From IMG/VR virus record IMGVR_UViG_3300028532_000077: a DNA stretch of 13,618 nucleotides; one strand, written 5' to 3'. Source of the DNA: a virus. Taxonomy: Duplodnaviria; Heunggongvirae; Uroviricota; Caudoviricetes. Shown one piece after another: positions 132 to 13,558 of this stretch. Position 1 is the first letter of the stretch; each line of letters opens with the position of its first letter. The notes under the pieces were generated by a model. That model did no database searches, was not told the DNA's origin, and saw only the letters and a program-made list of their open reading frames with translations. Both the position numbers and the translations under genes were made by a program.

Positions 132-273
132 AAAACACTCGATTAATCTCGTGTTAATGCCATCACCTACGACCATTACTAATTGATTGAATCTTATAGA
201 AAAATCATCATTTTCTATGCGTCACAATCAATTTTCACATTACAAACGCTCCGACACTTTAGCCGGAGATTTT

Positions 274-1551
274 ATGAGATACAAGCCTAACCAATACTTA
301 ATCTGTGATTCTTACGGTAACTACTATTTGAGGATCACGTTGCCTGTGTATATGCAGCCCTTTTTTGAAGGAAAAAGGACGTTTGTCAGAAGTCTGCACA
401 CAAGTAATCTTCGTGTTGCACGTAGAAAGCGTGATCAGATTGCAGATGAATACCATTGCTTACGGGAGAGTGTTGCCCCTGTAAACAGCACAATAGAAAA
501 CACGCTGGAACTGTTACGCAGTAAGGCTAAATACGCCAAAACAGCTACCAGAGTGCAAGATACAGCGTCTTCGTGTCCGTCATTGCTTAAAATTCTTGAA
601 ATCTACCTGACAATTAACAGCACGAAGAAGAAGCCAGCCACTTTAGCTAAGGCAAGAAAAGCGGTAGAGATGTTTCTCTCCTACCGTAAAAAGCCTGATA
701 TTGCATTGCAAGATGTAAGCCGCACCACTGTTACAGGCTGGATTGAACACATGCAAAAAACTCTTTCACAACAATCAATTGCAAATTATATCAGCCCAAT
801 GGCCCAGCTATGGGAATTAGCTTCATCACGTTACCACGATGCGCCAGAAAGGGCGCTCTCCCCCTGGCGAGGGCATAGGCTTGATGTGGCACAAAGTAGA
901 GAGAGCTACGAGGCATTTTCTAACAAAGAGCTATTGCAGGTGTTGCAAGTATTTTCCGGTAATTCAGCAGAAAACAAAGAAATGACGGCTTTGTGTCTTA
1001 TCGGTTTATATACAGGTATGCGGATCAATGAGATAGCAAGTCTCACAATAGACGATGTGAAAGAGATCGAAGGTGTGCTGTGTTTTGAAATCACACAGGG
1101 AAAAACGAAAGCTGCGGCACGTCTTGTGCCTGTGCATAGCCTTATCACTCCATTGGTGTTATCTCTTCGTGAAAAGCCTCACAATGGCTTTTTGTTCTAT
1201 CACGCCAGCATTACAGAGCGTGCTGACGGTAAACGCTCTACGTGGCATACACAACGATTTACAAGAGCTAAACGAAAGGCTTTAGGGGAAAAGGGAACAG
1301 AAAGGAAAGTGTTTCATTCTCTGAGACACGGAGTAGCACAGCTTCTTGATCGAAATCAAATTCCAGAGGACCGCATAGCTTTAATTTTGGGCCATCAGCG
1401 CGGCAATACAGAAACATTCCGCACATATAGCAAGAATGCAGCTTCTCCAGTAGAGCTTAAAAAATATATTGAGCTTTTACGCTACCCTGAAATAGAGAAA
1501 GGCTTATCAATCAATAAAAAATCAAATTTAAGGCGTAAAACAACGCCATAG
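274..1551 (+). CDS. int: Tyrosine recombinase / phage-type integrase
   Basis: C-terminal catalytic signature visible in translation: LYTGMRINE (Arg), HSLRH (His-x-x-Arg), LGHQRGNTETFRTY (His ... Tyr nucleophile). N-terminus YGNYYLRITLPVY...GKRTFVRSL resembles the arm-binding domain of phage integrases. Start chosen at ATG 274 with GGAG 5 nt upstream; ORF is open from TTG 187, ATG 217 also possible. Confidence 0.9.
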   Translation: MRYKPNQYLICDSYGNYYLRITLPVYMQPFFEGKRTFVRSLHTSNLRVARRKRDQIADEYHCLRESVAPVNSTIENTLELLRSKAKYAKTATRVQDTASSCPSLLKILEIYLTINSTKKKPATLAKARKAVEMFLSYRKKPDIALQDVSRTTVTGWIEHMQKTLSQQSIANYISPMAQLWELASSRYHDAPERALSPWRGHRLDVAQSRESYEAFSNKELLQVLQVFSGNSAENKEMTALCLIGLYTGMRINEIASLTIDDVKEIEGVLCFEITQGKTKAAARLVPVHSLITPLVLSLREKPHNGFLFYHASITERADGKRSTWHTQRFTRAKRKALGEKGTERKVFHSLRHGVAQLLDRNQIPEDRIALILGHQRGNTETFRTYSKNAASPVELKKYIELLRYPEIEKGLSINKKSNLRRKTTP

Positions 1552-1625: not shown

Positions 1626-2282
1626 TTATTTCACTTCTCCGTCATACGTCGGAAGGGTGTCTTTAGTGGTGCTGGCTGTTCCTGCATTGGTTGGCACTCG
1701 GCTTTTTACCTGTCCGCCTGTGCTCTTAGGTGATGCGGTCTTTATAGCAATAGCGTTAGTAGTTGCATAACTCACTAATCTTATCTGTTCGAACTGCAAA
1801 TCAAACTGTAAAGCTGATTCTGTTTTATATTCGTAGTCAATGCCTGTCAGAATCATATTATCAAACGTCTTATGCTCTGTGCTTACAATAATAGGCTGTC
1901 TGGCATTCATTATTTCATCAAGATAAGCAATAGCCTGTGAACACCTGTTACCGTTCACCCCTGCACTTGATAGCATATCACCACGTAATGCTAATGGTGT
2001 TTCTGTAATAATGCCTGAAAGCATAAGTTTATTATTCTTGATCCTGACATTATCAGATACATCATTACCATCCTGCACAGGATACGATGTAACATCGGCA
2101 GAACGTGAAACCTTAGTTGCCGGAACAGCGTCAAAAGTAATAGCTTTATAACTGGCTATCGTTGATGCATTTTCGTTATTCAGGTTGCTACATATAATGG
2201 CAAATCCGTTATCAGATTTAACCTTGCTGTTAGATGTATTAATGTTAGATGTGCTGTTGATCTGACTTTCTTTGATAGCCAT
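1626..2282 (-). CDS. Hypothetical protein (218 aa), last gene of the virion-like operon; possible minor structural protein
   Basis: Long ORF with AAGGA Shine-Dalgarno about 10 nt upstream of ATG; lies 73 nt downstream of the 633-aa gene on the same strand; Ser/Thr/Asn-rich sequence with no recognisable catalytic motif. Confidence 0.7.
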   Translation of the reverse strand: MAIKESQINSTSNINTSNSKVKSDNGFAIICSNLNNENASTIASYKAITFDAVPATKVSRSADVTSYPVQDGNDVSDNVRIKNNKLMLSGIITETPLALRGDMLSSAGVNGNRCSQAIAYLDEIMNARQPIIVSTEHKTFDNMILTGIDYEYKTESALQFDLQFEQIRLVSYATTNAIAIKTASPKSTGGQVKSRVPTNAGTASTTKDTLPTYDGEVK

Positions 2283-2355
2283 TTATATTAATCCTTGTGT
2301 AATGAGCGGAAAGCAATAAATATTGCCCCCGCTTTATTATTAGTTATCGTTAAAC

Positions 2356-4257
2356 TTAGTTAACGCTACTCTGTCCTGACAACGTGCTAAGAATCAGATT
2401 CGAACTAAACTGATTGTTGTTCGCTCTGATCTCAGTGCGGATTAAATCCTGAAAGCCGGGACCGTTAGGGATGACGTTAACAGAGATCATATCACTCGGC
2501 ACCGTAACCTGTGCATTCACGTTAACAGGAGTTGCGTATTGACGTTGTAGGCTTACAGTCGGCTGATAGGCTTCTGCTTTACGTGCAACAAGGGTTGATC
2601 CGTAGCTGTTAGCATTGCCATTAATTAAATCAGTCCACCACCCTGGAACGCCGGACTGTGTTTCCTCACCGCGCACAATACGCCCTACATCTTTCGTATC
2701 GAGTCCAGTTGCATAACGAATACCTTCATTGATAATCGTTGATGGCGACCATTCCCCATCTGTAACAGCGTCCATAACCTTTTGTGTCTCAGGTCTGTTA
2801 TCATTCTCACCACGGCTAAGATGTTTATTAATCCAGCTTGTGATTTGATTCCCGTAAGAAGTCATAGAGGTCAGTAATACAGCGCCTTGTTTAGCCAAAT
2901 CCCCGAACGATGCACCAACACCATAAGCTGCATTCTGTAAGGCTTTGCTTTCTTCCGGTTTGAGTGCTGGCATGTTGGCTATGCCATCAAAGAAGCCCAA
3001 AATAGCCTGATTCGATAGTCCATCTGTCAGACGGTCAAAGGCTGTAGCTGTCTTGTTAGCTGCGCGATATTGCTCTTTCTGTGCTTCTGTCAGTAGCTGC
3101 CCGTTGTTTTCCATATCAACCATCGTTTTACGGAACTCTTCCCCATCACGGGAAAACATCTTGAGATAATGGCTGGCATCGTCTGCTAATGGTTCGATCA
3201 GGGATATGATGGCTTCTTTAGTCATTCCTCGGCGTTCACCTTCTCTCACCACGTCTTGCAGGAGTTGCAGCGGTCGCCCCTGGTAGGAAGCTATCTTATC
3301 TTTGTTCCATGCAAAGGCATTCTGAATATCATTTAATGATCCTTCCCCGCCTCGCCACTCTTTTTTCTTACTATCCCATTCAGCAGTTCGGCTTTGATGA
3401 CCAATGCGTTCGTTTAAGTCTTTGATATTGTCAGTGGTCTTGTCCACGCTTGCACTTGATACACCGTTTGCCCTCCCCCAATTAACCATTGCAGCCACCT
3501 GGTTGGAGTCTGCGCCTACCAGATCGCTCATCTTCTGCAATTCCATACGTTCACGGGCTTTTTCCATTCCAGCAGATACAGCCATACTTCCTAAGCCAAC
3601 GGCAGCGCCGCCGATAATGCCACCAACACCGCCCATCATTAACGCGCCACCGCCGCTAACACCTTCTTTGTGGAGCTTCTTAGAAGTAACTGGATATACA
3701 CCCCCAGCGGCAGCATTACGACGCGTAGCAGCGGCTGCGGCTCGTCTTTCTAATGTGATGCGGTCACGGATCAGGGCATTCATCTTCGCTTGCGATATAG
3801 CGCCGGATTCATAGAGGCGGGTTTGTTCCTTAATGTAACGTAGAGCATCGTGATATTTCTTAATATCCATCCCTTCGCCATAGCGGGAATTGTTCTTGAT
3901 GCCTTGTAACTGGCGATATGATGCAAGGCGCTTGATCTCTGCCTTTTCAGCAATTGAGGCTTGTTTAGCCTGTGCTTTAGCGAGGTTTTTAGCTTCCTGT
4001 AGCTTCTGTTTAGTGCTGGCTTTAGATGCCTGTGTCTCAGATTTAACAGCCCGCTTAACATGCTGATCATGCTGGCGCTGAATCTCTTTTCCCAGCCTCT
4101 GTAAATCTTTCTGACGTGCTGCCGCCACTTGCACAGGTTTGATCCCCTGCATCTTCTTTTGTAGCTTATCCACTTCATTCTTAGCTTTCTGTAAGCTCTT
4201 GAAATCAGTGGTAAATGTCACAACATTACTAATTCGTGAGGCGGTAATTTCTAACAT
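2356..4257 (-). CDS. Coiled-coil / glycine-zipper protein (633 aa), tape-measure-like or ejection-protein-like
   Basis: N-terminal ~170 aa are K/Q/A/E-rich heptad-like (LQKAKNEVDKLQKK..., KQKLQEAKNLAKAQAKQ); central hydrophobic Gly-rich segment GGGALMMGGVGGIIGGAAVGLGSMAVSAGM as seen in phage tape-measure and pilot/ejection proteins; no enzymatic motif recognised. Confidence 0.75.
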   Translation of the reverse strand: MLEITASRISNVVTFTTDFKSLQKAKNEVDKLQKKMQGIKPVQVAAARQKDLQRLGKEIQRQHDQHVKRAVKSETQASKASTKQKLQEAKNLAKAQAKQASIAEKAEIKRLASYRQLQGIKNNSRYGEGMDIKKYHDALRYIKEQTRLYESGAISQAKMNALIRDRITLERRAAAAATRRNAAAGGVYPVTSKKLHKEGVSGGGALMMGGVGGIIGGAAVGLGSMAVSAGMEKARERMELQKMSDLVGADSNQVAAMVNWGRANGVSSASVDKTTDNIKDLNERIGHQSRTAEWDSKKKEWRGGEGSLNDIQNAFAWNKDKIASYQGRPLQLLQDVVREGERRGMTKEAIISLIEPLADDASHYLKMFSRDGEEFRKTMVDMENNGQLLTEAQKEQYRAANKTATAFDRLTDGLSNQAILGFFDGIANMPALKPEESKALQNAAYGVGASFGDLAKQGAVLLTSMTSYGNQITSWINKHLSRGENDNRPETQKVMDAVTDGEWSPSTIINEGIRYATGLDTKDVGRIVRGEETQSGVPGWWTDLINGNANSYGSTLVARKAEAYQPTVSLQRQYATPVNVNAQVTVPSDMISVNVIPNGPGFQDLIRTEIRANNNQFSSNLILSTLSGQSSVN

Positions 4258-4291
4258 GTTAATTGTTTCCCTGTATTATGATTATTGTTTG

Positions 4292-4489
4292 TTATTGTTT
4301 TTTAGAGCAATAATATTGGATTGCCTCAAAAGTGCTGCACCCAGTCTGAAACACACGCTGCCGCACATTATTTGCATCAATTGAAAGCATTCTGCATAAG
4401 GCACTGACATTGATTATTGAGTCATCGCTAATAGCTGCCAGTTCTTTTACAGCCTTAAGAATAAAGGATTGTGGGTTTTCTGTATTCAT
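4292..4489 (-). CDS. Small hypothetical protein (65 aa)
   Basis: ORF between the 343-aa and 633-aa genes on the same strand; weak purine-rich RBS (GAGAGAAAACC); no motif recognised. Confidence 0.45.
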   Translation of the reverse strand: MNTENPQSFILKAVKELAAISDDSIINVSALCRMLSIDANNVRQRVFQTGCSTFEAIQYYCSKKQ

Positions 4490-4640
4490 TGGTTTTCTCT
4501 CACATATATATTTTTATTTGGGTTTGTAGACAGTAGAAAAACAAAAAGGGCAAAGAGATTCGTTACTGTATTTGCGCCTACAGGTTAGTTAATCCCTTTA
4601 CCCTTATTGCCCCGATGGGGAATCGTCTATTAACGCTTTA

Positions 4641-5672
4641 TTACGCAGCAGATCCGAAGATGATAGCTTGCGGAATGTTGTTTACTGGCAGATAAGATGT
4701 CTCAGTAACCACAGATGGGAATTGGAATTCATCCTTGATTAGATATTGGTGATGCAACACGGCATCTTGACCTAACTCAGCATGACGCACACCAACGCCG
4801 CTATGAAGCTGGTAACACTGTGCCGCTTTATCCATTACCGGAACAATTGCGAAACCGTTCTCTCCGATGTGAGCAACAATCTCAGGAAACATTGACACAT
4901 CAATAACAGTGATCCCACCAATCTGGAAAGAGTCATAGGCTGGGTTAGAATCAACCATACGGGTAAACAGGGCCGTAGCACTCGCATCACCTGCATATTT
5001 CACCATGTCACTGATCAGCGGGTTAGATGACAAACCATCAGCAGCAGCGCCAGCAGCAAAGATAATTACACCAGTTCGCTTTGCAGCAAGACCAGACCCC
5101 AGCTTTTCACTCTGTAAGCGCACCGCTTTACGAATAGCAAGGAACGGGTTAACAGTAGTCGATGCAAAGTCGATAGCGGGTACCGTGGTTTTAGCCTGAC
5201 CGTCGAGGAAGTCGAGATCACCTTGTCCGGCATATTCAGATTCAACTTTCAGTCCCAGCAGCGCGGTAATCAGATCCACTTCAACACGGTTTGCGTGTGA
5301 ACGGTAATGAGCCTCAGAGAAATCATTAACCGCTACCAGCATAGCATCAGAACGGTTTGGATATTGGCGGCTGTATTGTTCCAGGTCACGAGAAGTAACA
5401 GCGTTAATACTGCCGACGTGTTTCATCTGGAAAAGTTTGTTTGACCATTCCTGACGTTTAGAAGCGTTCCAGTCGCTTTGAGCGTAAGGCGAGGTTTCCC
5501 CGGCTACCTGCACAAACTGCTCAATCAGGTCGGTAAGAAGAATGCTGTTTTCTGTATGATATTGCACATCGAACAGATCGAGATTAGTAATCAGGGTATT
5601 AAGTGCATTCTCATAAGCAAATGGAGTTACTACCGCAGTATTAACGCCAAAATATGTTGATAAATCATTCAT
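4641..5672 (-). CDS. Putative major capsid-like protein (343 aa)
   Basis: Size and position match the major capsid gene of lambda-like head modules (about 340 aa, immediately after an about 120-aa gene); AAGGAAAATAAT RBS; mixed alpha/beta composition with no nucleotide-binding or catalytic motif. Assignment is from context only. Confidence 0.6.
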   Translation of the reverse strand: MNDLSTYFGVNTAVVTPFAYENALNTLITNLDLFDVQYHTENSILLTDLIEQFVQVAGETSPYAQSDWNASKRQEWSNKLFQMKHVGSINAVTSRDLEQYSRQYPNRSDAMLVAVNDFSEAHYRSHANRVEVDLITALLGLKVESEYAGQGDLDFLDGQAKTTVPAIDFASTTVNPFLAIRKAVRLQSEKLGSGLAAKRTGVIIFAAGAAADGLSSNPLISDMVKYAGDASATALFTRMVDSNPAYDSFQIGGITVIDVSMFPEIVAHIGENGFAIVPVMDKAAQCYQLHSGVGVRHAELGQDAVLHHQYLIKDEFQFPSVVTETSYLPVNNIPQAIIFGSAA

Positions 5673-5686
5673 TATTATTTTCCTTG

Positions 5687-6070
5687 TTAAGTCGTAGGGA
5701 TCGCAAGTTCTTCATAACCAGCAATTACAAAGCCGAGAGATTGCAGTTTTGCAATAACACTTGCCTTTTCCATGCTGTTAAATTCAATCCCATCTTCAGC
5801 CAGAATAACGAAAGTAGGATGTGCAACCACTACGCTTTCCTGTCCTTCATAAGCCGGTTCAACTACTACGTGAGCAATATCAGATGCGGTTGTTGCTTTG
5901 GTGCCATCGGCTTTCAGCAAAGCCCCGACAATAAGATCGTCAGTGAGAGGTGAAGCCAGTTTGACGAGGCGATCTTGCAGCACTGGATCAGCAGCGTAAG
6001 CTACTACCTTACAGCGTGAACGGGAGTTATCCGCATTCACTGCTTTTAATTTTCCATATGGGTTAGCCAT
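5687..6070 (-). CDS. Putative head decoration / scaffold-like protein (127 aa)
   Basis: Stop lies 14 nt from the start of the 343-aa gene; nearly identical AAGGAAAATAAT RBS context; size and position resemble gpD-type decoration proteins upstream of major capsid genes. Context only. Confidence 0.5.
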   Translation of the reverse strand: MANPYGKLKAVNADNSRSRCKVVAYAADPVLQDRLVKLASPLTDDLIVGALLKADGTKATTASDIAHVVVEPAYEGQESVVVAHPTFVILAEDGIEFNSMEKASVIAKLQSLGFVIAGYEELAIPTT

Positions 6071-6074
6071 AAGA

Positions 6075-6272
6075 TTATTTTCCTTTCAGTTGTTTAATTT
6101 TAGATTTAAGGGCATCAGCAAGACTAACCGCATCAGCCGATTTAAATAATTGAGCAGTGGTAGAACGAAGACTTTCGGGAGTAACTCCCAACAGTGCGGC
6201 AACCTTAATGAGGTTTTCATCACTAACAATCATCGTTTCCCCGTCTTTGCTGATAATCATTTCTTGTTTCAT
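6075..6272 (-). CDS. Small hypothetical protein (65 aa from ATG 6272; ORF open to 6314)
   Basis: First gene of the leftward virion-like operon; AGGAA 8 nt upstream of ATG 6272; stop is 4 nt before the next start; the longer ORF start at 6314 would run into an upstream hairpin. Confidence 0.55.
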   Translation of the reverse strand: MKQEMIISKDGETMIVSDENLIKVAALLGVTPESLRSTTAQLFKSADAVSLADALKSKIKQLKGK

Positions 6273-7266
6273 AAATAACGTTCCTGTTAGTGCCAGACAA
6301 ATAAAAAGCCCCAATGCCGTAAGAGGTTAATTCTGACCAGCAAAGGGGCTTTAACGTGCGGGCAATTACATAATTGATAAGTTAAACTATAAGAGGATTA
6401 AACATATCAGCAAATACACTTTTTAAATATACTTGATGATATGCTTAAAGAGTGAATATCAGACCTTAGAAAGGAAGGCTCTTAGGAGTTTGCCACTGGA
6501 ATCACTAAGATCTGATATTCTGGGTGCGGTGGCTAACCGCTGCCTGTTTTTGCTGTGGATGCAACAAAGTAAGGCTTTAAGGAATCACTATTCCAATTCT
6601 CATCTACTCACAGATCAAATTTTAATAGGATTAACTACACCAACAATAATCTACCGTTTCAGAAAAAGCGTTTTTACAACCAAAGATTATAGATTTGCAG
6701 TCTATAAAACCCGTTTTGCTATCAATATTTCCAAAGGTTATTGCACAATTCTTAGCTAAACTCTCTACTTGCGGCTAACGCTACGCAGATGATAGTTTTT
6801 TGACAACAACTTAATAGATTATTCTGTTACTAACTTCTGTCATTAAATAAGAGTTTAATGATGTTAGTAAATAGTTATAAAATATAACTATCAGTGTAAG
6901 GCTCTTTAATGTTTTCGGACAAAATAAGGAGCTTTAGGATAAGCATAGATGAAAAATAAGAGCGGGAAGGGCAAGGAGATAACACCTACCCGCTTTTATC
7001 AAAATTAAGCACAATGCCTAACAACATTCATCAACACAACGTAGAAACAATCAACAATCAAAGAGGGAGTTATGATTATTCTAAAACTTCTTGAGAGATG
7101 GAAGGTAATATTTGTTAGAGGTTAATGCCACTCAACCCTTGAGGCTATCACCTTCCATATGCAGGGATTTATGACAGTAGAAGGATTAACACCAGTCAAA
7201 ACCTTTTTATCTACCCCTAATATCATTATATAATGAAATCGCTATAAATGCAAATGATTTTCATTG

Positions 7267-7859: not shown

Positions 7860-8243
7860 TTAGTTAGAACGTTTGTTAGAAGCTAATGTATCTTCTAAAT
7901 GAGCCATCAGATCGACTTCCGATGCACCACCTACACAATTATTGAAAGCGTTAAATCCCAAAAAATGATGATAGGAGCTAAACCCTAAAAGTTGCCAACG
8001 CTTCAGAGTGCCATCAGAAATTATTGTTTGTTTTCTTGTTCTTGGGCGAAAGTAAACGCCTGGCATTGACTGGATTATTTCTAATTCTTTATTACTTAAT
8101 TCAGGGGATTCTATTTCAAGAATAAATATTATCTCTTCCCCTGGAATTTCATTATTGGTATGTGTCGGTGGACGTTGTCTTTTTGAATTGAAATTACTGT
8201 TTTTTTCAATACGTTTTAAGTTATTCTTTTTCTTTCTTCCCAT
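7860..8243 (-). CDS. Hypothetical protein with basic N-terminus (127 aa)
   Basis: GAGGG RBS 5 nt upstream of ATG; N-terminus MGRKKKNNLKRIEKNSNFNSKRQR is strongly basic (possible nucleic-acid binding); no catalytic motif recognised. Confidence 0.65.
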   Translation of the reverse strand: MGRKKKNNLKRIEKNSNFNSKRQRPPTHTNNEIPGEEIIFILEIESPELSNKELEIIQSMPGVYFRPRTRKQTIISDGTLKRWQLLGFSSYHHFLGFNAFNNCVGGASEVDLMAHLEDTLASNKRSN

Positions 8244-8378: not shown

Positions 8379-9047
8379 TTAGAATGGTATTGAATCGTAT
8401 ATTTCACTTTTTTCTCTTAGAGATATTATCAGATCGTGAAAAGCCTGTTTCTCAAGATAGATATTCTTTGAATCTAATGCTCGTTTTACAAAATCTTCTG
8501 TTTCTTCGTGCGGTGGTTTCTTCTTATCAAGGGAAAGAAGCCAAGTAAAAATTTCGGGCCGCTCAGGGAACTCTGATTCCTGTGTTTCTTCTTCAATGAT
8601 GATTTCTGAAACATTCAATATTTCATTAGATTCGTCTTCTTTCTCAGAAGGATCAGGTAGTGATGACTCTCCAGGGGGAGTAATATGTGCATCTGTGAAT
8701 GGTAATGCTTTATAGAGTGATGTTTGCCCGTCCCGAGCCTCTACAGAAAGAACTCCCATATCAACAAACATATTTATAATATTGCGAACCTGGCGATCAC
8801 TAACCATTCCAATATTAGATAATGTTTTTTGAGTGGCGTAACATTCTTGCCCTTGTTCATTGAATCCAGCTATATAGCTATAGATTTCAACGGCTGGCAG
8901 TGTAGCGGTGTATTCATTACCTGACGGTGAGAACCACTTTTTAAACATCTTCAACCACTGCTCAACGACTACATATTTTTGTTTACCATCTTTCTGATTT
9001 AGACATTTGGCTTTCGCTTCGGCAATTGTTTTGATATTTTTGATCAT
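8379..9047 (-). CDS. Winged-HTH DNA-binding protein (222 aa), candidate replication initiator or regulator
   Basis: Strong AGGAGG RBS before ATG 9047; segment YATQKTLSNIGMVSDRQVRNIINMFVDMGVLSVEARDGQTSLY has the pattern of a winged helix-turn-helix; acidic C-terminal tail (EDESNEILNVSEIIIEEETQESE). Confidence 0.75.
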   Translation of the reverse strand: MIKNIKTIAEAKAKCLNQKDGKQKYVVVEQWLKMFKKWFSPSGNEYTATLPAVEIYSYIAGFNEQGQECYATQKTLSNIGMVSDRQVRNIINMFVDMGVLSVEARDGQTSLYKALPFTDAHITPPGESSLPDPSEKEDESNEILNVSEIIIEEETQESEFPERPEIFTWLLSLDKKKPPHEETEDFVKRALDSKNIYLEKQAFHDLIISLREKSEIYDSIPF

Positions 9048-9171
9048 TTAGTTCCTCCTTTGTAAGGACTGTAATTAGTAATTCATTAACAAGTTTTGGA
9101 ATTGATTTCCCTTCTGCCTTTGCACGATTTAACAACGCGTTATAAGTTGCAGAATCAAAATTAATATTCAT
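8983..9171 (-). CDS. Ribbon-helix-helix (CopG/Arc-like) DNA-binding protein (62 aa)
   Basis: MNINFDSATYNALLNRAKAEGKSIPKLVNELLITVL fits the beta-strand then two-helix RHH pattern; GGAGAAGGAG RBS; 3' end overlaps the start of the wHTH gene by 65 nt in another frame. Confidence 0.65.
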   Translation of the reverse strand: MNINFDSATYNALLNRAKAEGKSIPKLVNELLITVLTKEELNDQKYQNNCRSESQMSKSERW

Positions 9172-9194
9172 TTGGTTTTCTCCTTCTCCTGTTA

Positions 9195-9371
9195 TTATTC
9201 TTTCTCTGCTTTACGCAGTTCATCAATAATTTTTAGTGCATCGTCAAAACATTTTTCACGCTCTGGATAACCACAGCGTCGCGCTGTGTTCCTATTCATT
9301 CTTACCCTAAAGCGGTTGATCTCACCACGTTTCCAGGCTTCAACTACATCTTGAGAAGTGAAATACTTCAC
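9195..9371 (-). CDS. Small hypothetical protein (58 aa, GTG start), first gene of the regulatory operon; not in the supplied ORF track
   Basis: GTG at 9371..9369 preceded by a perfect AGGAGG at about 8 nt; in-frame to TAA at 9197..9195; basic protein (…RFRVRMNRNTARRCGYPERE…). Confidence 0.5.
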   Translation of the reverse strand: MKYFTSQDVVEAWKRGEINRFRVRMNRNTARRCGYPEREKCFDDALKIIDELRKAEKE

Positions 9372-9523: not shown

Positions 9524-9787
9524 CCCCCACCCATAAAATATTGATCATTTTTCAGTATGTTATGATTTTGCTTAGCAATTCGTGCTCTTCTGTGTGATGC
9601 TATTCTTCCTTATTCTCTAAAACGCGTTCTAACGAGGTTTTGATAAAAACAATACATTCCCTTATGTAATGACAGTTTAGCTCGCCTACGGCTTGATTTA
9701 AGCGGTAGAAACTTATTTAACCTTCAACTACTAAAACCATTCTTTTTTGTTTGTTGTTGGTTGTTGTCTGTGTCTATGTGCTAACAT

Positions 9788-10060
9788 CGCTAACGCGTAG
9801 CACACAAGGTTATTGCACTCGTCAGAGTATTGCACAATAGATTTTCTCTTAAATAGATTGATGATCGTTAGATTGGCGTAAGCCTCATCAATGGAACTAT
9901 TGAAGCGCACAGCGCATAGACACTAACAACCATTCGCTTACGCTCAGGTTATTGCACAAGTAAATTTCAATCGTTAGATGGTAGTTAGTTAATTATCGTT
10001 CTGCGCACAGCGCAAGACTATTTAGCCTTACGCAAGCCGTAGGCTATTTGCACATAGTAG
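9788..10060. repeat. Modular imperfect tandem duplication (about 100-bp period) with recurring short motifs
   Basis: TCGTTAGAT at 9865 and 9971; GCGCACAGCGCA at 9905 and 10003; GGTTATTGCAC at 9808 and 9947 with variants at 9827 and 10043; GCTAACGC at 9788. Confidence 0.6.
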
Positions 10061-10200
10061 ATTACATATTCGTTGTGAGCGGCATTAGCGAACATAGATC
10101 TACTAACTAACATCAACAAACAAAAACTATGTGTTATGACAAGCAGTCTAACGACTAACACTCTAACTTGTGCAAGGTTCTGGCGAATGCCAATAGATTA

Positions 10201-10235
10201 AGGGATAGTCGTTAGACTCCCTAACGGGTATCCCT
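10201..10235. repeat. Nested perfect inverted repeat (stem-loop)
   Basis: AGGGATA gt CGTTAG actcc CTAACG gg TATCCCT: outer 7-bp and inner 6-bp perfect stems; followed by about 60 bp of AT-rich DNA (10236-10295). Confidence 0.6.
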
Positions 10236-10295
10236 ATAATTATTCTTATAAAGATAAAAAAGAATTATATTATATAGTTTAATTGTAGTATTGTC

Positions 10296-10394
10296 GGAAA
10301 TCATTTCCTAGGTGATAGGAACTCATTTCCTAGGTAGGTAGGAAACCACTTCCACGGTTATTTCCTAAATAGATCGGAACTCATTTCCCAGGTG
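10296..10394. repeat. Iteron-like array: four 19-bp direct repeats, each with internal dyad symmetry
   Basis: GGAAATCATTTCCTAGGTG (10296), GGAACTCATTTCCTAGGTA (10318), GGAAACCACTTCCACGGTT (10341), GGAACTCATTTCCCAGGTG (10376); spacing 22, 23 and 35 bp; each copy contains GGAA-N5-TTCC. Confidence 0.7.
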
Positions 10395-10860
10395 TTATTT
10401 ATACTTATCGGGTATCAGACTTGATAGGGGTAGCTCACAGTGACCTACCGTTACATCCAATCATCACATAACATCTGTGCAATGATCTTCTAAAAGTGTT
10501 TCTTGCTACCAAAATTAAACATCTAAAACAGGCTTAAATTCAATGTAATTGATGATTAATCCCTGTGTAATTCCTACGTAAAAATCCAATGAAAAGTAGC
10601 TTAAAAAGTGCAATGTTAGCTTTCTTCACTTTTGCGTCATCATCAGCAAAGCCTTATGTTATGCGGCATATAGCGCATCACTGCAAAATTGTTGCTCAAT
10701 AAACGTTCTATCATTTGTCGAACAAGTTCTTTCACGTGTTGAAAATTTATGTTTAAATTTGCTTTCAATCTTTAATGTGCAATCACTATCAACATAAAAA
10801 TAAAAAACCTTCTATTATATTTCATAGCATACAAAAGTCAATAGAAGCCCTCTCGTGCTC

Positions 10861-11244
10861 CTACGTAAAAAATCCACCACTTTTCCCCTTATACATCAAC
10901 TCAAGGCGTTCTATGTGTTCCTTAGTGCATATTACGATTATTATGTTAAATGGATTTTGGACTATATTTTGACCTGCACCCGCATAAACACTGGTTTCAT
11001 CGCTTACAGCCCTTGTGAGACGTGGTGCTGTTTCTAGCATCTGATCCGACATAAAACCGATCATTCTCGTGTTTAGTGAAAGTTTAGTGAGATACATTAC
11101 AGAAAGGCTTTCTGTGTAATGATTTAATAGGTAAAAACGATGTTGATTACGCAAGAAAATTCCTTGCTGATATTTGGGGATTCTGGATTTTCCAGATCGG
11201 GGGGCGGTGAAAATCGCGTTAAGCACTTCTCGCAATCTAGCCAT
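10861..11244 (-). CDS. Questionable ORF (127 aa)
   Basis: Open frame only; no purine-rich RBS before the ATG (CCCTTCCC context); translation has no recognisable features. Listed because nothing else occupies this interval. Confidence 0.2.
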   Translation of the reverse strand: MARLREVLNAIFTAPRSGKSRIPKYQQGIFLRNQHRFYLLNHYTESLSVMYLTKLSLNTRMIGFMSDQMLETAPRLTRAVSDETSVYAGAGQNIVQNPFNIIIVICTKEHIERLELMYKGKSGGFFT

Positions 11245-11260
11245 AAGGGAAGGGATAAAG

Positions 11261-11300
11261 GTATTTAGATGTATTTATAGCTATTTATGGCTATTTATTT
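11261..11300. repeat. Four tandem 10-bp AT-rich repeats (helical phasing)
   Basis: GTATTTAGAT / GTATTTATAG / CTATTTATGG / CTATTTATTT in exact 10-bp register. Confidence 0.5.
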
Positions 11301-11460
11301 TTTATTTACCTTAATTTAAAAATAGCCTTATAAATCAATAAGATACAGGACTATCTGTTTATATTTTGATCAATTAAATCAAGTTTAATACCCTTAAACC
11401 ACCTGAAAATAACCTTAAATACCCCAATAATTAATTTTAACGATTCCTGTGCTCTCTCCT

Positions 11461-11531
11461 ACTTTGCAAAAAGGCAAAAAAGCCCATAGAGGCACAAAAA
11501 TATTAAAACCAATAACTCAATAATGCCTCTA
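11461..11531 (-). terminator. Putative terminator downstream of the 183-aa gene
   Basis: Perfect 8-bp inverted repeat TAGAGGCA (11487-11494) / TGCCTCTA (11524-11531); on the minus strand the hairpin is followed by a U-rich tract (GGGCUUUUUUGCCUUUUUGC). The 29-nt loop is long, so only moderate support. Confidence 0.35.
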
Positions 11532-11549
11532 CAAGAGCTTCTCTAACTG

Positions 11550-12101
11550 TTATTTTTGATTGAGCTTACATCGATCCCATTGTTCTGTCGTTCTTGTGAT
11601 ACGATCGCTTATTGCAAAATTTAATAGCCAAGAATCATAAGCATAAACCTTGCTTTTATCATCTGCCATCATAAACTTGCCGTTAGCATTCAGTTTTGGC
11701 GATATCAAATATGTTCCATTTAATCTGTTAGCCTTGAAGCTATCTGCATATAAAGTTACTTGTGCGTATCCCTGAACACGTAATGCCCCTAAACGTCCGT
11801 TTTCGATTGATGCAATAGAGTATTGGCAAAGATAATTTTTGGCAGCAGGAGTCGTTTTCACTCCTTCAGTTTTTCGTGAATTATTTGATTGCGAGCTTCG
11901 AATAGAGGATGAAGGATAAGAGTATGAATGATTTTTATAAGATGAAGGGGCATAAGAGCCAATCCGGCACGTCTTACCAACAGCTATACACGAGTTACCA
12001 CAAGGTATTCCTTTTTTGCAGTTTTTAGCAACTGCGGTAGAAGTTCCCCCTACAAACAACGTTGTAAAAATCATCATCCTCACAAATGCAGACCTGCGCA
12101 T
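11550..12101 (-). CDS. Secreted Cys-motif protein of unknown function (183 aa)
   Basis: Strong GGGAGG RBS 5 nt before ATG; N-terminal signal peptide (MRRSAFVRMMIFTTLFVGGTSTAVA, Ala-x-Ala cleavage context); mature N-terminus C-KKGIP-C-GNS-C-IAVGKT-C has four spaced cysteines; then a Ser/Tyr-rich linker. Confidence 0.8.
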   Translation of the reverse strand: MRRSAFVRMMIFTTLFVGGTSTAVAKNCKKGIPCGNSCIAVGKTCRIGSYAPSSYKNHSYSYPSSSIRSSQSNNSRKTEGVKTTPAAKNYLCQYSIASIENGRLGALRVQGYAQVTLYADSFKANRLNGTYLISPKLNANGKFMMADDKSKVYAYDSWLLNFAISDRITRTTEQWDRCKLNQK

Positions 12102-12390
12102 ATAACCTCCCTTTTTAGATTATTCTTATGCTATACACTTGCTTAAAAAAATAAAAGTGCCCTCTAACCTTTATCGTTCTCCATCACAATTTGAGAAGTA
12201 AGAGCAGCAACCTCAAGCGATGATCACGTTTGCGCCGATTTCAGAGAAAAAGACAGTAACTGAACTCACTATGAAGGCTAAACGTATCTTTACACTTGAT
12301 GAAAACGTTCAAAAAACAACCTAACCCCAAAATTCAACAAATAACAACATATTGTTTTTAAAAGAAAATTAAATCTACATCAAATATTGG

Positions 12391-12419
12391 TTGACGTAGA
12401 TTGAGGTGAATAGTAGACT
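12391..12419 (+). promoter_or_regulatory. Candidate sigma70 promoter for the small plus-strand ORF
   Basis: TTGACG (12391-12396), 17-bp spacer, TAGACT (12414-12419). Confidence 0.35.
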
Positions 12420-12495
12420 ATTAGGGTAAATTGCCATTATTGCAACATCATTTAATGCATGTTCTAATCCTCCTATCCCAAAACCGGAGGAAGTT

Positions 12496-12654
12496 ATGCA
12501 TTTACTTTCAAAACATCTTCACACTATTCACTTTCTCGTTATTGATGTATTCATTGTGGCTATTAGTTACCGCATTTGCATCGCTTCCAGTGAAGAGATG
12601 GACGCTGTTGCAATTATTGCTCAAGCAATGGCGATGTTAACTAAACGACTTTAA
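12496..12654 (+). CDS. Small protein (52 aa) with a hydrophobic core
   Basis: ATG 12496 has GGAGG 5 nt upstream; encodes MHLLSKHLHTIHFLVIDVFIVAISYRICIASSEEMDAVAIIAQAMAMLTKRL; the SD can pair with TCCTCC 13 nt upstream (12468-12473). This frame differs from the 12431..12640 ORF in the supplied track. Confidence 0.4.
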   Translation: MHLLSKHLHTIHFLVIDVFIVAISYRICIASSEEMDAVAIIAQAMAMLTKRL

Positions 12655-12668
12655 TAATTTCACTATCA

Positions 12669-12710
12669 GGCGCATAAACACATCTTTGATCGCTGGATGT
12701 GTTATGCGCC
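12669..12710. terminator. Strong hairpin between convergent small genes (candidate bidirectional terminator)
   Basis: GGCGCATAAACACATC (12669-12684) pairs with GATGTGTTATGCGCC (12696-12710): about 15 bp with one bulge and an 11-nt loop. No long T-run on either side, so termination efficiency is uncertain. Confidence 0.5.
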
Positions 12711-12720
12711 TACTGGTGAT

Positions 12721-12873
12721 TCAATCCTTAAGCCATTTCAACTCACTAAGGAGTTTTCTTTCTTCGTTCTCTCTCTGTTTACGCTCTAGCCAGGCTTTTC
12801 CTTCTGGCGTAGACAGGAACTTACGAGCGTGAATCTTGCGGTTATTACGTTTGATAGCTGCAATGTTTTTCAT
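12721..12873 (-). CDS. Small basic protein (50 aa); not in the supplied ORF track
   Basis: ATG at 12873..12871 with AGAGG 7 nt upstream; encodes MKNIAAIKRNNRKIHARKFLSTPEGKAWLERKQRENEERKLLSELKWLKD; stop TGA at 12723..12721. Confidence 0.4.
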   Translation of the reverse strand: MKNIAAIKRNNRKIHARKFLSTPEGKAWLERKQRENEERKLLSELKWLKD

Positions 12874-13481
12874 CGTGTGCCTCTGTATTCATATGAAAAT
12901 TAACAAGTTACATACTACACAGGGAGACTACGCATAAAACACAATACAAGTAAAGATACATTTTCAAGACAATAGGAGCCATAAAGCGCCTTTGATGGGC
13001 TACCCCAAAAAATAAGCGCCGTAGGCGTATCCACTAAAAAGGGCTTTTTCACAAAAGCTATGAAGTCTTAGCAGTTCTTCTCTTATCAGGCACCCGTTGT
13101 ACTCCGGTGGACGAAACCGTGCTAGAGCTTGATTCTTTCCCGATCAAGTTAGGTTTTGAAGAGGTGGGCTTTAATCCACTATGCACTTAAAACTACTCTT
13201 CCCATCATTTAGCCTGTTTATCCTCTGCAACGTCATCTCGACGTGTAGCATCATTGGACACCGCGCCAGGTGTGGAACATCTTGCTAAGAGTTTTGGTAG
13301 AAGGTTTAGAGACGGTGGCACGTCTTCCAGCTTCAAAGGAACTTGTTACGAGGTTGAGCCTGGGAACTACTCGCCCATACGTGTTACACTACCAAAGCCC
13401 ATAACAACGTATAGGCGTTTGTAAGTGATAACAGAAGATACAATTTCTTAGAGAAGCTAAGCTAAGTTATTGATTTTCTTG

Positions 13482-13501
13482 ATGGTGCCGATAATAGGAG
13501 T
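13482..13501. repeat. attR-type direct repeat overlapping the tRNA-Thr 3' end
   Basis: Identical to 112-131. Confidence 0.8.
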
Positions 13502-13558
13502 CGAACCTACGACCTTCGCATTACGAATGCGCTGCTCTACCAACTGAGCTATGCCGGC
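13483..13558 (-). tRNA. tRNA-Thr (anticodon CGU)
   Basis: Reverse complement is GCCGGCATAGCTCAGTTGGTAGAGCAGCGCATTCGTAATGCGAAGGTCGTAGGTTCGACTCCTATTATCGGCACCA: 76-nt cloverleaf with D-stem GCTC/GAGC, anticodon loop TTCGTAA (CGT), T-stem GTAGG/CCTAT with TTCGACT loop, encoded CCA. Confidence 0.93.

Follow-up and report, generated by a model that had tools for sequence, protein, structure and literature searches.

An integrative island of Escherichia coli with homologs of phi92-like head and tail proteins, probably a satellite of virulent myophages

Introduction

Phage satellites that engage with the virion of a helper provide the closest described systems for the element investigated here, a 13.4-kb integrative mobile island of E. 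coli that is bounded by attachment (att) sites and that makes up most of a 13,618-nucleotide stretch of DNA (the window, IMG/VR virus record IMGVR_UViG_3300028532_000077). The island encodes a major capsid protein (MCP), a decoration-like protein, a tape measure protein (TMP) and a tail tube initiator. The cfPICIs are likewise integrative elements of about 12-15 kb, which encode an HK97-fold MCP of their own and depend on helper tails. They contain a full set of genes for head formation and packaging, including TerS, portal, protease and head-tail adaptors, together with alpA and Pri-Rep, and they carry no tail genes. Of this set just the MCP is present in the island, whereas it possesses a TMP and an initiator, and its candidate helpers are virulent instead of temperate. 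The closest functional precedent for its head unit is found in PICIs of the SaPIbov5 type, whose Ccm is a satellite-encoded HK97-fold homolog of the helper MCP that is used for small capsids, together with the helper MCP and PICI packaging functions, in a system of Staphylococcus siphophages that has no decoration or tail genes.

A different set of parallels is offered by PLE, the satellite of Vibrio cholerae with the helper ICP1, which shares with the island a virulent myophage as (in our case candidate) helper, a RepA-type initiator with a repeat origin, the modular swapping of replicons, and helper phages with T5orf172-based nucleases that bear a satellite DNA-binding domain. PLE has no MCP of its own and instead re-sizes the ICP1 coat with the external scaffold TcaP (as stated in the title of PDB entry 8g1r), and it contains no TMP or initiator genes. 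The island, in contrast, resides in E. coli, has its own MCP, displays no sequence relationship to PLE and falls outside the definition of the latter, the likeness being confined to the logic of an arms race between replicon and nuclease. The genes of P4-like satellites (sid, psu, delta, the alpha primase-helicase, cnr and epsilon) have no PHROG or Pfam match in the island, whose proteins outside of the structural module do not exceed 222 residues and include no primase or helicase.

A family of elements that does correspond to the island has been described by Barth, Dunham and Seed (NAR Genom Bioinform 2023; PMC10448857, preprint PMC10055350). It comprises 224 putative satellites from E. coli and its relatives, identified in a search that started from the T5orf172/RepA_N nucleases of the phages Inny and Muut as well as Mt1B1_P17. 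These satellites contain att sites, a tRNA-adjacent tyrosine integrase and genes for MCP, decoration protein, TMP and a single baseplate component, they are described as being without terminase, protease, alpA, adaptors and Pri-Rep, and a comparison with cfPICIs is drawn there as well; the figures in Table S6, which are apparently element lengths, range from 11.5 to 14.8 kb (PMC10448857). The copies closest to the window, CP024256.1 (98.4% identity over 95% of the window), CP051001.1, CP035870.1 and CP022664.1, are all found in Table S6 with coordinates covering the island, and the att string of the table is that of the island. Both are the same element, which is reflected in a RepA-like gene that shares DNA with the T5orf172 nucleases and from which the nuclease domain is absent, in an integrase adjoining one att site and an element adjoining a tRNA, in the presence of an MCP and a decoration protein (the latter by weak similarity, size and position), in a TMP with one baseplate-associated protein in the absence of other tail genes, and in the lack of terminase, prohead protease, alpA, head-tail adaptors and Pri-Rep. 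The first-pass annotation of the window, made from its letters alone, had stated that the arrangement does not match the satellite families known to its author (P4-like satellites, PICIs, cfPICIs and PLEs), which is correct; the family is nevertheless listed by Barth et al. The element is thus already known as a member of a putative satellite family, and its reading as a satellite was reached independently in PMC10448857. A literature search retrieved no experimental follow-up of this family.

Results

A six-gene module with the gene order of phi92-like phages

The structural genes of the island form part of a compact module of six open reading frames (ORFs), which are all located on the minus strand between positions 1626 and 6272 of the window:

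1626-2282, minus strand: Dit-like tail tube initiator (218 aa), homolog of phi92 gp135 (PF21821 Dit_like, 5.2e-28)
2356-4257, minus strand: tape measure protein (633 aa), homolog of phi92 gp134 (phrog_16051, 3.6e-72; Phi92_gp134, 6.7e-49)
4292-4489, minus strand: small2 (65 aa), helix-turn-helix (HTH)-like, co-varying with TMP and initiator
4532-4610, minus strand: terminator-like hairpin and U-run between head and tail units (fold of 4485-4645 on the minus strand, a long stem followed by UUUUUGUUUUU, z = -2.8)
4641-5672, minus strand: HK97-fold MCP (343 aa) of the lambda gpE/PF03864 type, distant homolog of phi92 gp124
5687-6070, minus strand: decoration-like protein (127 aa), weakly assigned
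6075-6272, minus strand: small1 (65 aa with the ATG at 6272 as start, 79 aa with a TTG further upstream), HTH-like, a 198-nt coding sequence in RefSeq

The six genes are real and not chance ORFs. The coordinates proposed in the first-pass annotation were found to be exact, and RefSeq annotates the same six genes, most of them as hypothetical, in an island that is 97-98% identical. Equally accurate were its description of a 14-nt gap between the genes of the 127-aa and the 343-aa protein and of a ribosome binding site context common to both, AAGGAAAATAAT, which occurs exactly twice in the window, preceding these two genes. Homologs of the module genes are distributed across the Enterobacteriaceae, and the copies examined contain no internal stops. 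The ratio of non-synonymous to synonymous substitutions (dN/dS) of the six genes is between 0.05 and 0.22 and thus indicative of purifying selection. Since relatives with 97-99% identity are too similar for a robust estimate, this ratio was determined with the more distant loci L022 and L007 (numbers preceded by L denote individual island and phage loci), whose comparison provides values of 0.12-0.14 for the MCP and the decoration-like protein, 0.15 for the TMP, 0.08 for the initiator and 0.05 for small2; over both comparisons the ranges are 0.05-0.2 for the MCP and 0.15-0.22 for the TMP.

The arrangement had initially been likened to a lambda-like morphogenesis order, but its actual template is found in phi92-like members of the Stephanstirmvirinae, where decoration protein and MCP precede TMP and initiator. 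In the Justusliebigvirus PaulScherrer, the genes for terminase, portal, protease and scaffold are followed by those for the decoration protein (130 aa), the MCP (333 aa), nine proteins of neck, sheath and tube, the TMP (659 aa), the tube initiator (236 aa) and finally baseplate and fibres. From about 35 structural genes, the island keeps two gene pairs in phage order, which are equivalent to phi92 gp123/gp124 and gp134/gp135. Its proteins resemble in size those of the phi92-like module (PaulScherrer/Bas60; phi92 PDB entries 21uy and 21vq), where the MCP comprises 333-343 and the TMP 635-662 residues, although the island adds two small HTH-like genes that are absent at the corresponding positions of the phages. 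None of the other proteins of the 150-kb PaulScherrer genome has a homolog in the island, with the exception of one early gene. The tail units of all three examined island types find their best matches in Stephanstirmvirinae, which in case of the Klebsiella island are Klebsiella phages. As judged from these alignments and those detailed below, the structural genes are shown to be anciently diverged, collinear homologs of phi92 gp123/gp124 and gp134/gp135, and the source lineage of the module is the phi92-like Stephanstirmvirinae myophages (Justusliebigvirus, Phapecoctavirus and relatives).

The remaining genes required for a virion are missing, as had been proposed. Profile scans of the ORFs of the att-bounded island detected none for terminase, portal, protease, scaffold, neck, sheath, tube or baseplate wedge, and Pfam and PHROG scans none for hub or fibres. 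There was also no match to alpA, primase-helicase, head-tail adaptors or Pri-Rep in Pfam, PHROG and NCBIfam scans of the submitted island ORFs.

The head unit

That the 343-aa protein is an HK97-fold, lambda-gpE-type MCP is firmly supported. The window protein itself has no Pfam match; 11 of the 15 members of its family match PF03864 (Phage_cap_E, major capsid protein E) on their own (best E-value 2.6e-9), and homologs at 42-48% identity carry this domain. In a comparison by hhalign with the MCP of PaulScherrer, the two are collinear over 228 columns (E 2.8e-5), and residues 25-338 of the island protein align with residues 23-336 of the MCP of the Klebsiella phage 05F01, which also comprises 343 residues. 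A Foldseek search with a model of the protein found HK97-fold MCPs throughout the top 15 PDB matches (E 6.8e-9 to 5e-4), which include those of PhiTE, Bas63, Sf14, lambda and YSD1 and, among the best, the ICP1 coat in the small capsids of the PLE type (8g1r). Identity to the MCPs of Stephanstirmvirinae amounts to about 20-23%. A profile search of 1.84 billion proteins returned only 60 relatives, several of which bridge both groups in that they align over their full length with island and Stephanstirmvirinae MCPs alike. This exhaustive search used the MCP family, the alignment of the decoration-like protein being too shallow to reach phage decoration proteins. The sole matches of the MCP in a tblastn search of 50,697 phage genomes were MCPs of Aeromonas myophages (25% identity), with none that was lambda-like. 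The capsid assignment of the first-pass annotation is thus borne out by family profile, fold, alignment to phage 05F01 and bridging sequences.

Two motifs of the island MCP, located at residues 29-41 (LITNLDLFDVQYH) and 168-177 (DFASTTVNPF), are nearly identical to the phage protein, whereas synonymous sites differ. Only island lineages of E. coli share the second motif, in place of which those of Klebsiella, Enterobacter and Cronobacter have a different sequence. Gene conversion was considered as source of the shared motifs and rejected on the basis of the synonymous differences, which indicate that the motifs are selectively retained or convergent rather than recently converted. We infer that they may constitute contact points for helper-encoded partners.

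The 127-aa protein has the size and place of a phage decoration protein, which comprises 130 residues and is encoded directly upstream of the MCP. Two PHROGs are matched, weakly, that are also matched by the genuine phage decoration protein, phrog_2680 (0.068, compared to 6.7e-39 for the phage protein) and phrog_4146 (0.018, compared to 1.2e-3). The match to Phi92_gp123 involves equivalent residues at an E-value of 0.98, the family comparison with the phage decoration protein by hhalign has an E-value of 0.011 and a probability of just 4%, and an AlphaFold2 (AF2) model based on an alignment of 10 sequences (pLDDT 44) is unusable. Of the decoration/capsid pair suggested earlier, the capsid part therefore stands, whereas the decoration part is weak.

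In the alignment of small1 (A6), the motif VAALLGVTPESLR and a C-terminal IKQLKGK are conserved, and matches to HTH_3 and HTH_8 are found below threshold. The possibility that small1 would act as mini-scaffold was dropped after hhalign found no similarity to the phage scaffold protein.

The tail unit

The relationship to phi92-like phages is more pronounced in the tail genes. The initiator scores 98.1 bits against PF21821, compared to a gathering cutoff of 24.2 bits, matches Phi92_gp135 (21vq) with an E-value of 1.1e-68 and the tube initiator of PhiTE with 8e-7 among PDB entries, and shares 60-63% identity with the proteins annotated as tail tube initiator in about 130 Stephanstirmvirinae phages. 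The 633-aa protein can be aligned over its entire length with the TMP of phage 05F01 (635 aa; 26.5% identity); identity to phage TMPs is 26-36% overall and 29-40% in the C-terminal approximately 420 residues. Its N-terminal part, which is helical and charged, and a zipper rich in Gly and Ala at around residues 199-230 agree with the earlier description of a coiled-coil/glycine-zipper protein, and the comparison with tail proteins that had been recommended for both gene products identified them as a tape measure (phrog_16051) and a Dit-like initiator (PF21821).

TMP lengths are 605-633 residues in islands (the window, L004, L007, L012, L022, L026 and L027) and 635-662 residues in phages (L002, L024 and L025). 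The shortfall with respect to PaulScherrer is located in the N-terminal coiled-coil part, which spans residues of about 63-205 in the island and 66-248 in the phage. On the usual tape measure scale of about 0.15 nm per residue, it corresponds to merely a few nm of tail.

The alignment of small2 (A5) contains the motif VSALCRMLSIDANNVRQR, and its family shows HTH matches below threshold (DUF2089-HTH, 0.0011; Sigma70_r4_2, 0.014). Small2 is 95% identical between L022 and L007, in step with their TMP. Its candidacy as homolog of a TMP chaperone was dropped, since hhalign detected no similarity to the 75-aa protein that precedes the TMP in the phage. By their motifs and sub-threshold matches, both small proteins look like HTH proteins and not like structural parts, contrary to their initial placement among the virion proteins.

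Two independently exchanged cassettes

The module consists of two units whose genes travel together, a head unit of small1, the decoration-like gene and the MCP, and a tail unit of small2, TMP and initiator. Both recombine freely and swap independently between lineages, with breakpoints in the 151-nt gap that holds the terminator-like hairpin. A module of five or six genes followed by an integrase is also found in a second E. coli lineage, in Klebsiella, K. oxytoca and Cronobacter, further relatives of the MCP are named from Citrobacter, Enterobacter and Pluralibacter, and the module recurs in at least five genera at 40-60% protein divergence. Among 5,426 complete E. coli genomes, 242 contain a head unit of the window type, which in 214 of them, from unrelated lineages, is at least 99% identical. 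The tail unit of the window type is present in 104 complete E. coli genomes, and most of the alternative tail unit (a coverage of at least 80%) in 182.

Boundaries and integration site

The window is E. coli DNA, whose two ends are contiguous in strain K-12 and thus define the empty site. The island between them is delimited by the following features:

109-136, no strand: attL, a 28-nt direct repeat with a 20-nt identical core ATGGTGCCGATAATAGGAGT, copy of the tRNA-Thr 3' end
187-1551, plus strand: tyrosine integrase (PF00589, 4e-17; DUF6538; Phage_int_SAM_5; phrog_1, 1e-32)
13479-13506: attR, overlapping the 3' end of tRNA-Thr(CGT) at 13483-13558 on the minus strand, the integration target (ARAGORN and Rfam matches)

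The two att repeats (repeat family D4) are 89% identical, and the integration site is the tRNA-Thr gene thrW. RefSeq annotates a tyrosine-type recombinase/integrase, which begins at an internal start and thus comprises 425 residues. The tRNA is the sole match in Rfam scans of the window, a C. elegans snoRNA at an E-value of 0.085 being noise.

In the O104:H4 strain 2011C-3493 (L023), the island is directly followed by another element (16066-21430 of this locus), which carries an integrase, Icd-like genes and those of the antirepressor antA/antB, so that mobile elements are arrayed in tandem at the thrW site. Copies differ in the tRNA-proximal third of the island (10400-13478), its cargo end. 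In the window this third contains an ORF at 11550-12101 for a protein of 183 residues whose N-terminus resembles a signal peptide (phrog_2578/14768) and whose place is taken by a serine recombinase/resolvase of 183 residues in the O104:H4 (L023), L007 and L022 copies. Insertion sequences (IS) interrupt several copies (hits H166-H170, and also H41, H45 and H64), with ISKpn26 found in several O104:H4 strains, where it splits the gene of the tube initiator, and ISCro1 (IS66 family) or IS3 elements in other copies. Some islands are thus probably disabled.

The replicon and its exchange with phages

A further link to phi92-like phages is found in the region upstream of the module, which contains a putative replicon:

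6273-7254, minus strand: sigma70-like promoter and leader (promoter at 7254-7225, TTTGCA-18-TATAAT, 10 of 12 matches)
7860-8243, minus strand: i127b (127 aa, basic N-terminus), family-core, conserved in L007 (49%) and L004 (37%)
8379-9047, minus strand: RepA-like winged-helix initiator/regulator (222 aa, HTH_36; PF13730, 5.8e-5; PHROG replication-initiator families, 3.5e-6)
8983-9171, minus strand: i62 (62 aa), 98% identical to a Justusliebigvirus early gene (bas60_0101)
9195-9371, minus strand: i58 (58 aa), family-core, 64-79% identical in L004 and L007 types, no family match
9670-10397, no strand: control/origin region, inverted-repeat-rich at 9670-10290, AT-rich at 10235-10290, with four palindromic 22-nt repeats at 10292-10397

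Positions 8635-8952, which encode an N-terminal part of the 222-aa protein, are 93.5-93.8% identical in DNA to genes of the phages Mt1B1_P17, muut, inny and BI-EHEC. The product of Mt1B1_P17 contains two HTH_36 domains and T5orf172/MUG113, whereas the island protein contains HTH_36 only and no nuclease domain; the Pfam label of the shared DNA-binding domain is here HTH_36 and not RepA_N. Barth et al. read genes of this type as RepA, the target of Odn-like nucleases (PMC10448857). The gene of the 222-aa protein has alleles in L001 and L022 that encode different HTH_36 proteins, and with them the 22-nt repeats change as well, which suggests that protein and repeats form a cognate protein-site pair. 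Another exchange concerns i62, which has a weak match to the transcriptional-regulator family phrog_11622 (0.0097). The DNA at 9019-9185 is 98.2% identical to PaulScherrer and 97.6% identical to VEcB, and the i62 region (8983-9185) corresponds to positions 76686-76885 of PaulScherrer. Thus, i62 marks a second, very recent exchange between island and phage that is separate from the one of RepA and nuclease.

No part of the island family is more conserved than the control region, with 91-98% nucleotide identity where the MCP genes are 65-79% identical. This non-coding DNA, in which long-range inverted repeats are dense, folds far beyond shuffled sequences on both strands (z = -5.6 and -6.4) and has no Rfam match. 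Its role could be that of an origin or a pac site, or it might encode a structured leader RNA of considerable length. For i127b, no match was found in Pfam, PHROG, PADLOC, NCBIfam and PDB, and a PADLOC scan of ten island proteins revealed no defence family.

The sigma70-like promoter, a strong one, is followed by a leader of about 950 nt without convincing ORF, which ends in a hairpin at 6295-6312, about 30 nt before the module. The equivalent ORF-poor gap measures 874 bp in L007 and 521 bp in L004, and its sequence is not conserved between lineages. The 18-mer GGGGCTTTTTATTTGTCT (6295-6312) is identical at 18 of 18 positions to PaulScherrer 14935-14952, although with a BLAST E-value of 0.14 the match may be due to chance; it covers the T-run and the 3' half of a hairpin resembling a terminator, which in the phage is located between TMP and initiator and followed by a TTGACA-17-TAAAAT promoter. 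No late-promoter motif shared between island and phage was found. A further 42 nt at 11200-11241, which overlap the start of a doubtful 127-aa ORF (10861-11244), are 88% identical to PaulScherrer 94967-95008, an intergenic segment upstream of the gene of a putative DNA-binding protein, and may by this similarity be a shared regulatory site.

Discussion

The properties of the island investigated in this study are reflected best in a complete integrative satellite of about 13.4 kb, whose helpers would be virulent phi92-like myophages of about 150 kb. We consider this role probable, in light of structural genes that were copied long ago from such phages and of the recent exchange of DNA with exactly these phages, which has occurred twice and is evident in the nuclease genes (93.5%) and the early gene (98%). 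Upon infection by a helper, the island would excise and replicate from its own origin, with RepA recruiting replication proteins of the host or the helper. The island MCP, probably together with the decoration-like protein, would assemble on the portal, scaffold and protease of the helper into a shell for about 11-15 kb, which the helper terminase would fill with satellite DNA. Finally, the satellite TMP and initiator would be built into contractile tails made by the helper on its baseplate hubs, resulting in particles in which shell and tail core are satellite-encoded and other parts stolen. The diversion of its components would lower the yield of the helper.

Several observations weigh against this account. 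The island yielded no TerS, pac or cos as determinant of packaging, the attP junction TTTTCTTGATGGTGCCGATAATAGGAGTAAAACACTCG was not found in viral or metagenome contigs, and the IMG/VR loci with the MCP derive for the most part from isolate genomes, in which they were called as proviruses, and not from particles. In the head unit, the AF2 model of the MCP is of low to modest confidence (pLDDT 53, pTM 0.56), the 127-aa protein is decoration-like in a weak sense, and the size of the shell, approximately T=4 compared to the much larger head of the helper, is an estimate from genome size and from analogy with P4, SaPI and PLE capsids. In the tail unit, the initiator is missing in the islands of Klebsiella and K. 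oxytoca, and since island TMPs nearly attain the length of those of the helpers, a change of tail length is not a compelling purpose.

Some of these points would equally suit an island dedicated to interference with phages, whose diverged MCP, decoration-like protein, TMP and initiator act as dominant-negative decoys that poison heads and tails of phi92-like phages and whose own packaging is inefficient. The degree of homology would suffice for the proteins to engage in helper assembly, as illustrated by the 60% identity of the initiator, the 29-40% of the C-terminal approximately 420 residues of the TMP and the MCP motifs, and the phage nucleases apparently aimed at the island replicon imply that the island harms phages. 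In addition, no packaging gene or site was identified, and no attP junction was found in the public contigs searched. However, a pure decoy would require neither a full-length and constrained pair of MCP and decoration-like protein nor integrase, att sites and a replicon, PADLOC assigns no defence family, and a head unit with at least 99% identity in 214 unrelated genomes points, together with the swapping of cassettes, to frequent horizontal transfer. We thus regard interference as sole function as unlikely, while noting that in the characterized satellites PLE, SaPI and P4 interference and transfer are combined and that the two do not exclude each other.

The sparse match of the MCP to its counterparts in Stephanstirmvirinae, compared to the much closer relationship of the tail unit, and the independent evolution and swapping of both units could also reflect two kinds of helpers, with the gpE-type MCP assembling on portal and terminase of another phage, such as a temperate lambda-like one, and the tail unit operating with phi92-like tails to yield chimeric particles. 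The family matches the lambda-type PF03864, and lambda is among the fold matches; nevertheless, the nearest phage MCPs by full-length alignment and bridging sequences are those of Stephanstirmvirinae, the search of phage genomes has revealed no lambda-like match, and the pairing of decoration-like protein and MCP, the protein sizes and the two motifs fit a head module of the phi92 type, which renders such chimeras quite improbable. Even less credible is that the island represents what decay has left of a prophage, or of phage DNA once captured, with six genes that no longer function together. The annotation of most genes as hypothetical in RefSeq, the interruption of some copies by IS elements and the fragmentary set of virion genes might be taken in its favour, but phi92-like phages are strictly virulent, so that prophage remnants would not be expected, att sites and integrase are intact, and the divergence of the MCP from its phage counterpart (about 23% identity) greatly predates any recent deletion. 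Purifying selection on the six genes and the conservation of the compact module in at least five genera, despite a protein divergence of 40-60%, effectively refute this reading.

Within the satellite role, which we thus favour, the tail unit poses a particular question, namely what a satellite would gain from a tape measure and a tube initiator of its own. The cassette-like swapping suggests a matching of the tail unit to different helpers, and our preferred idea is that this unit constitutes an exchangeable, helper-matching cassette, although this is the least certain step of the proposed mechanism. In its full extent, the satellite would rework both ends of the virion, with a small shell of its own on stolen portal and scaffold and a replaced tail core, the two cassettes being independently matched to the helper. 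We put this forward tentatively, as a possibility that may well prove incorrect. If true, the island would be, as far as known, the first satellite shown to supply inner-tail components and, after PLE and ICP1, the second tractable model, in this case in E. coli, of satellites preying on lytic phages.

Since the family has been published as a bioinformatic prediction only, the value of the island now lies in experimental test and not in its discovery. Compared to the accessible parts of the account of Barth et al., which is short, bioinformatic and centred on a nuclease arms race, our analysis adds the one-to-one correspondence to phi92 gp123/124/134/135, the fold of the MCP and its bridging sequences, the selection on the six genes, the behaviour of the two cassettes and the retained MCP motifs. 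It further adds the versions of the island in Klebsiella/K. oxytoca, which lack the initiator, and in Cronobacter, the prevalence in E. coli, the exchange of DNA with Justusliebigvirus and the conserved control region rich in inverted repeats.

Collectively, about 4-5% of complete E. coli genomes carry the island, including O104:H4 outbreak strains, ST131 and avian pathogenic E. coli (APEC). The phi92-like and related large lytic coliphages, of which phage-therapy collections make wide use, are probably hijacked by the island, at the expense of their yield, and some of them carry nucleases that appear to be aimed at it. The island may thus offer an E. coli model for satellites of virulent phages and for the setting of a small head by a satellite MCP on a foreign portal and scaffold.

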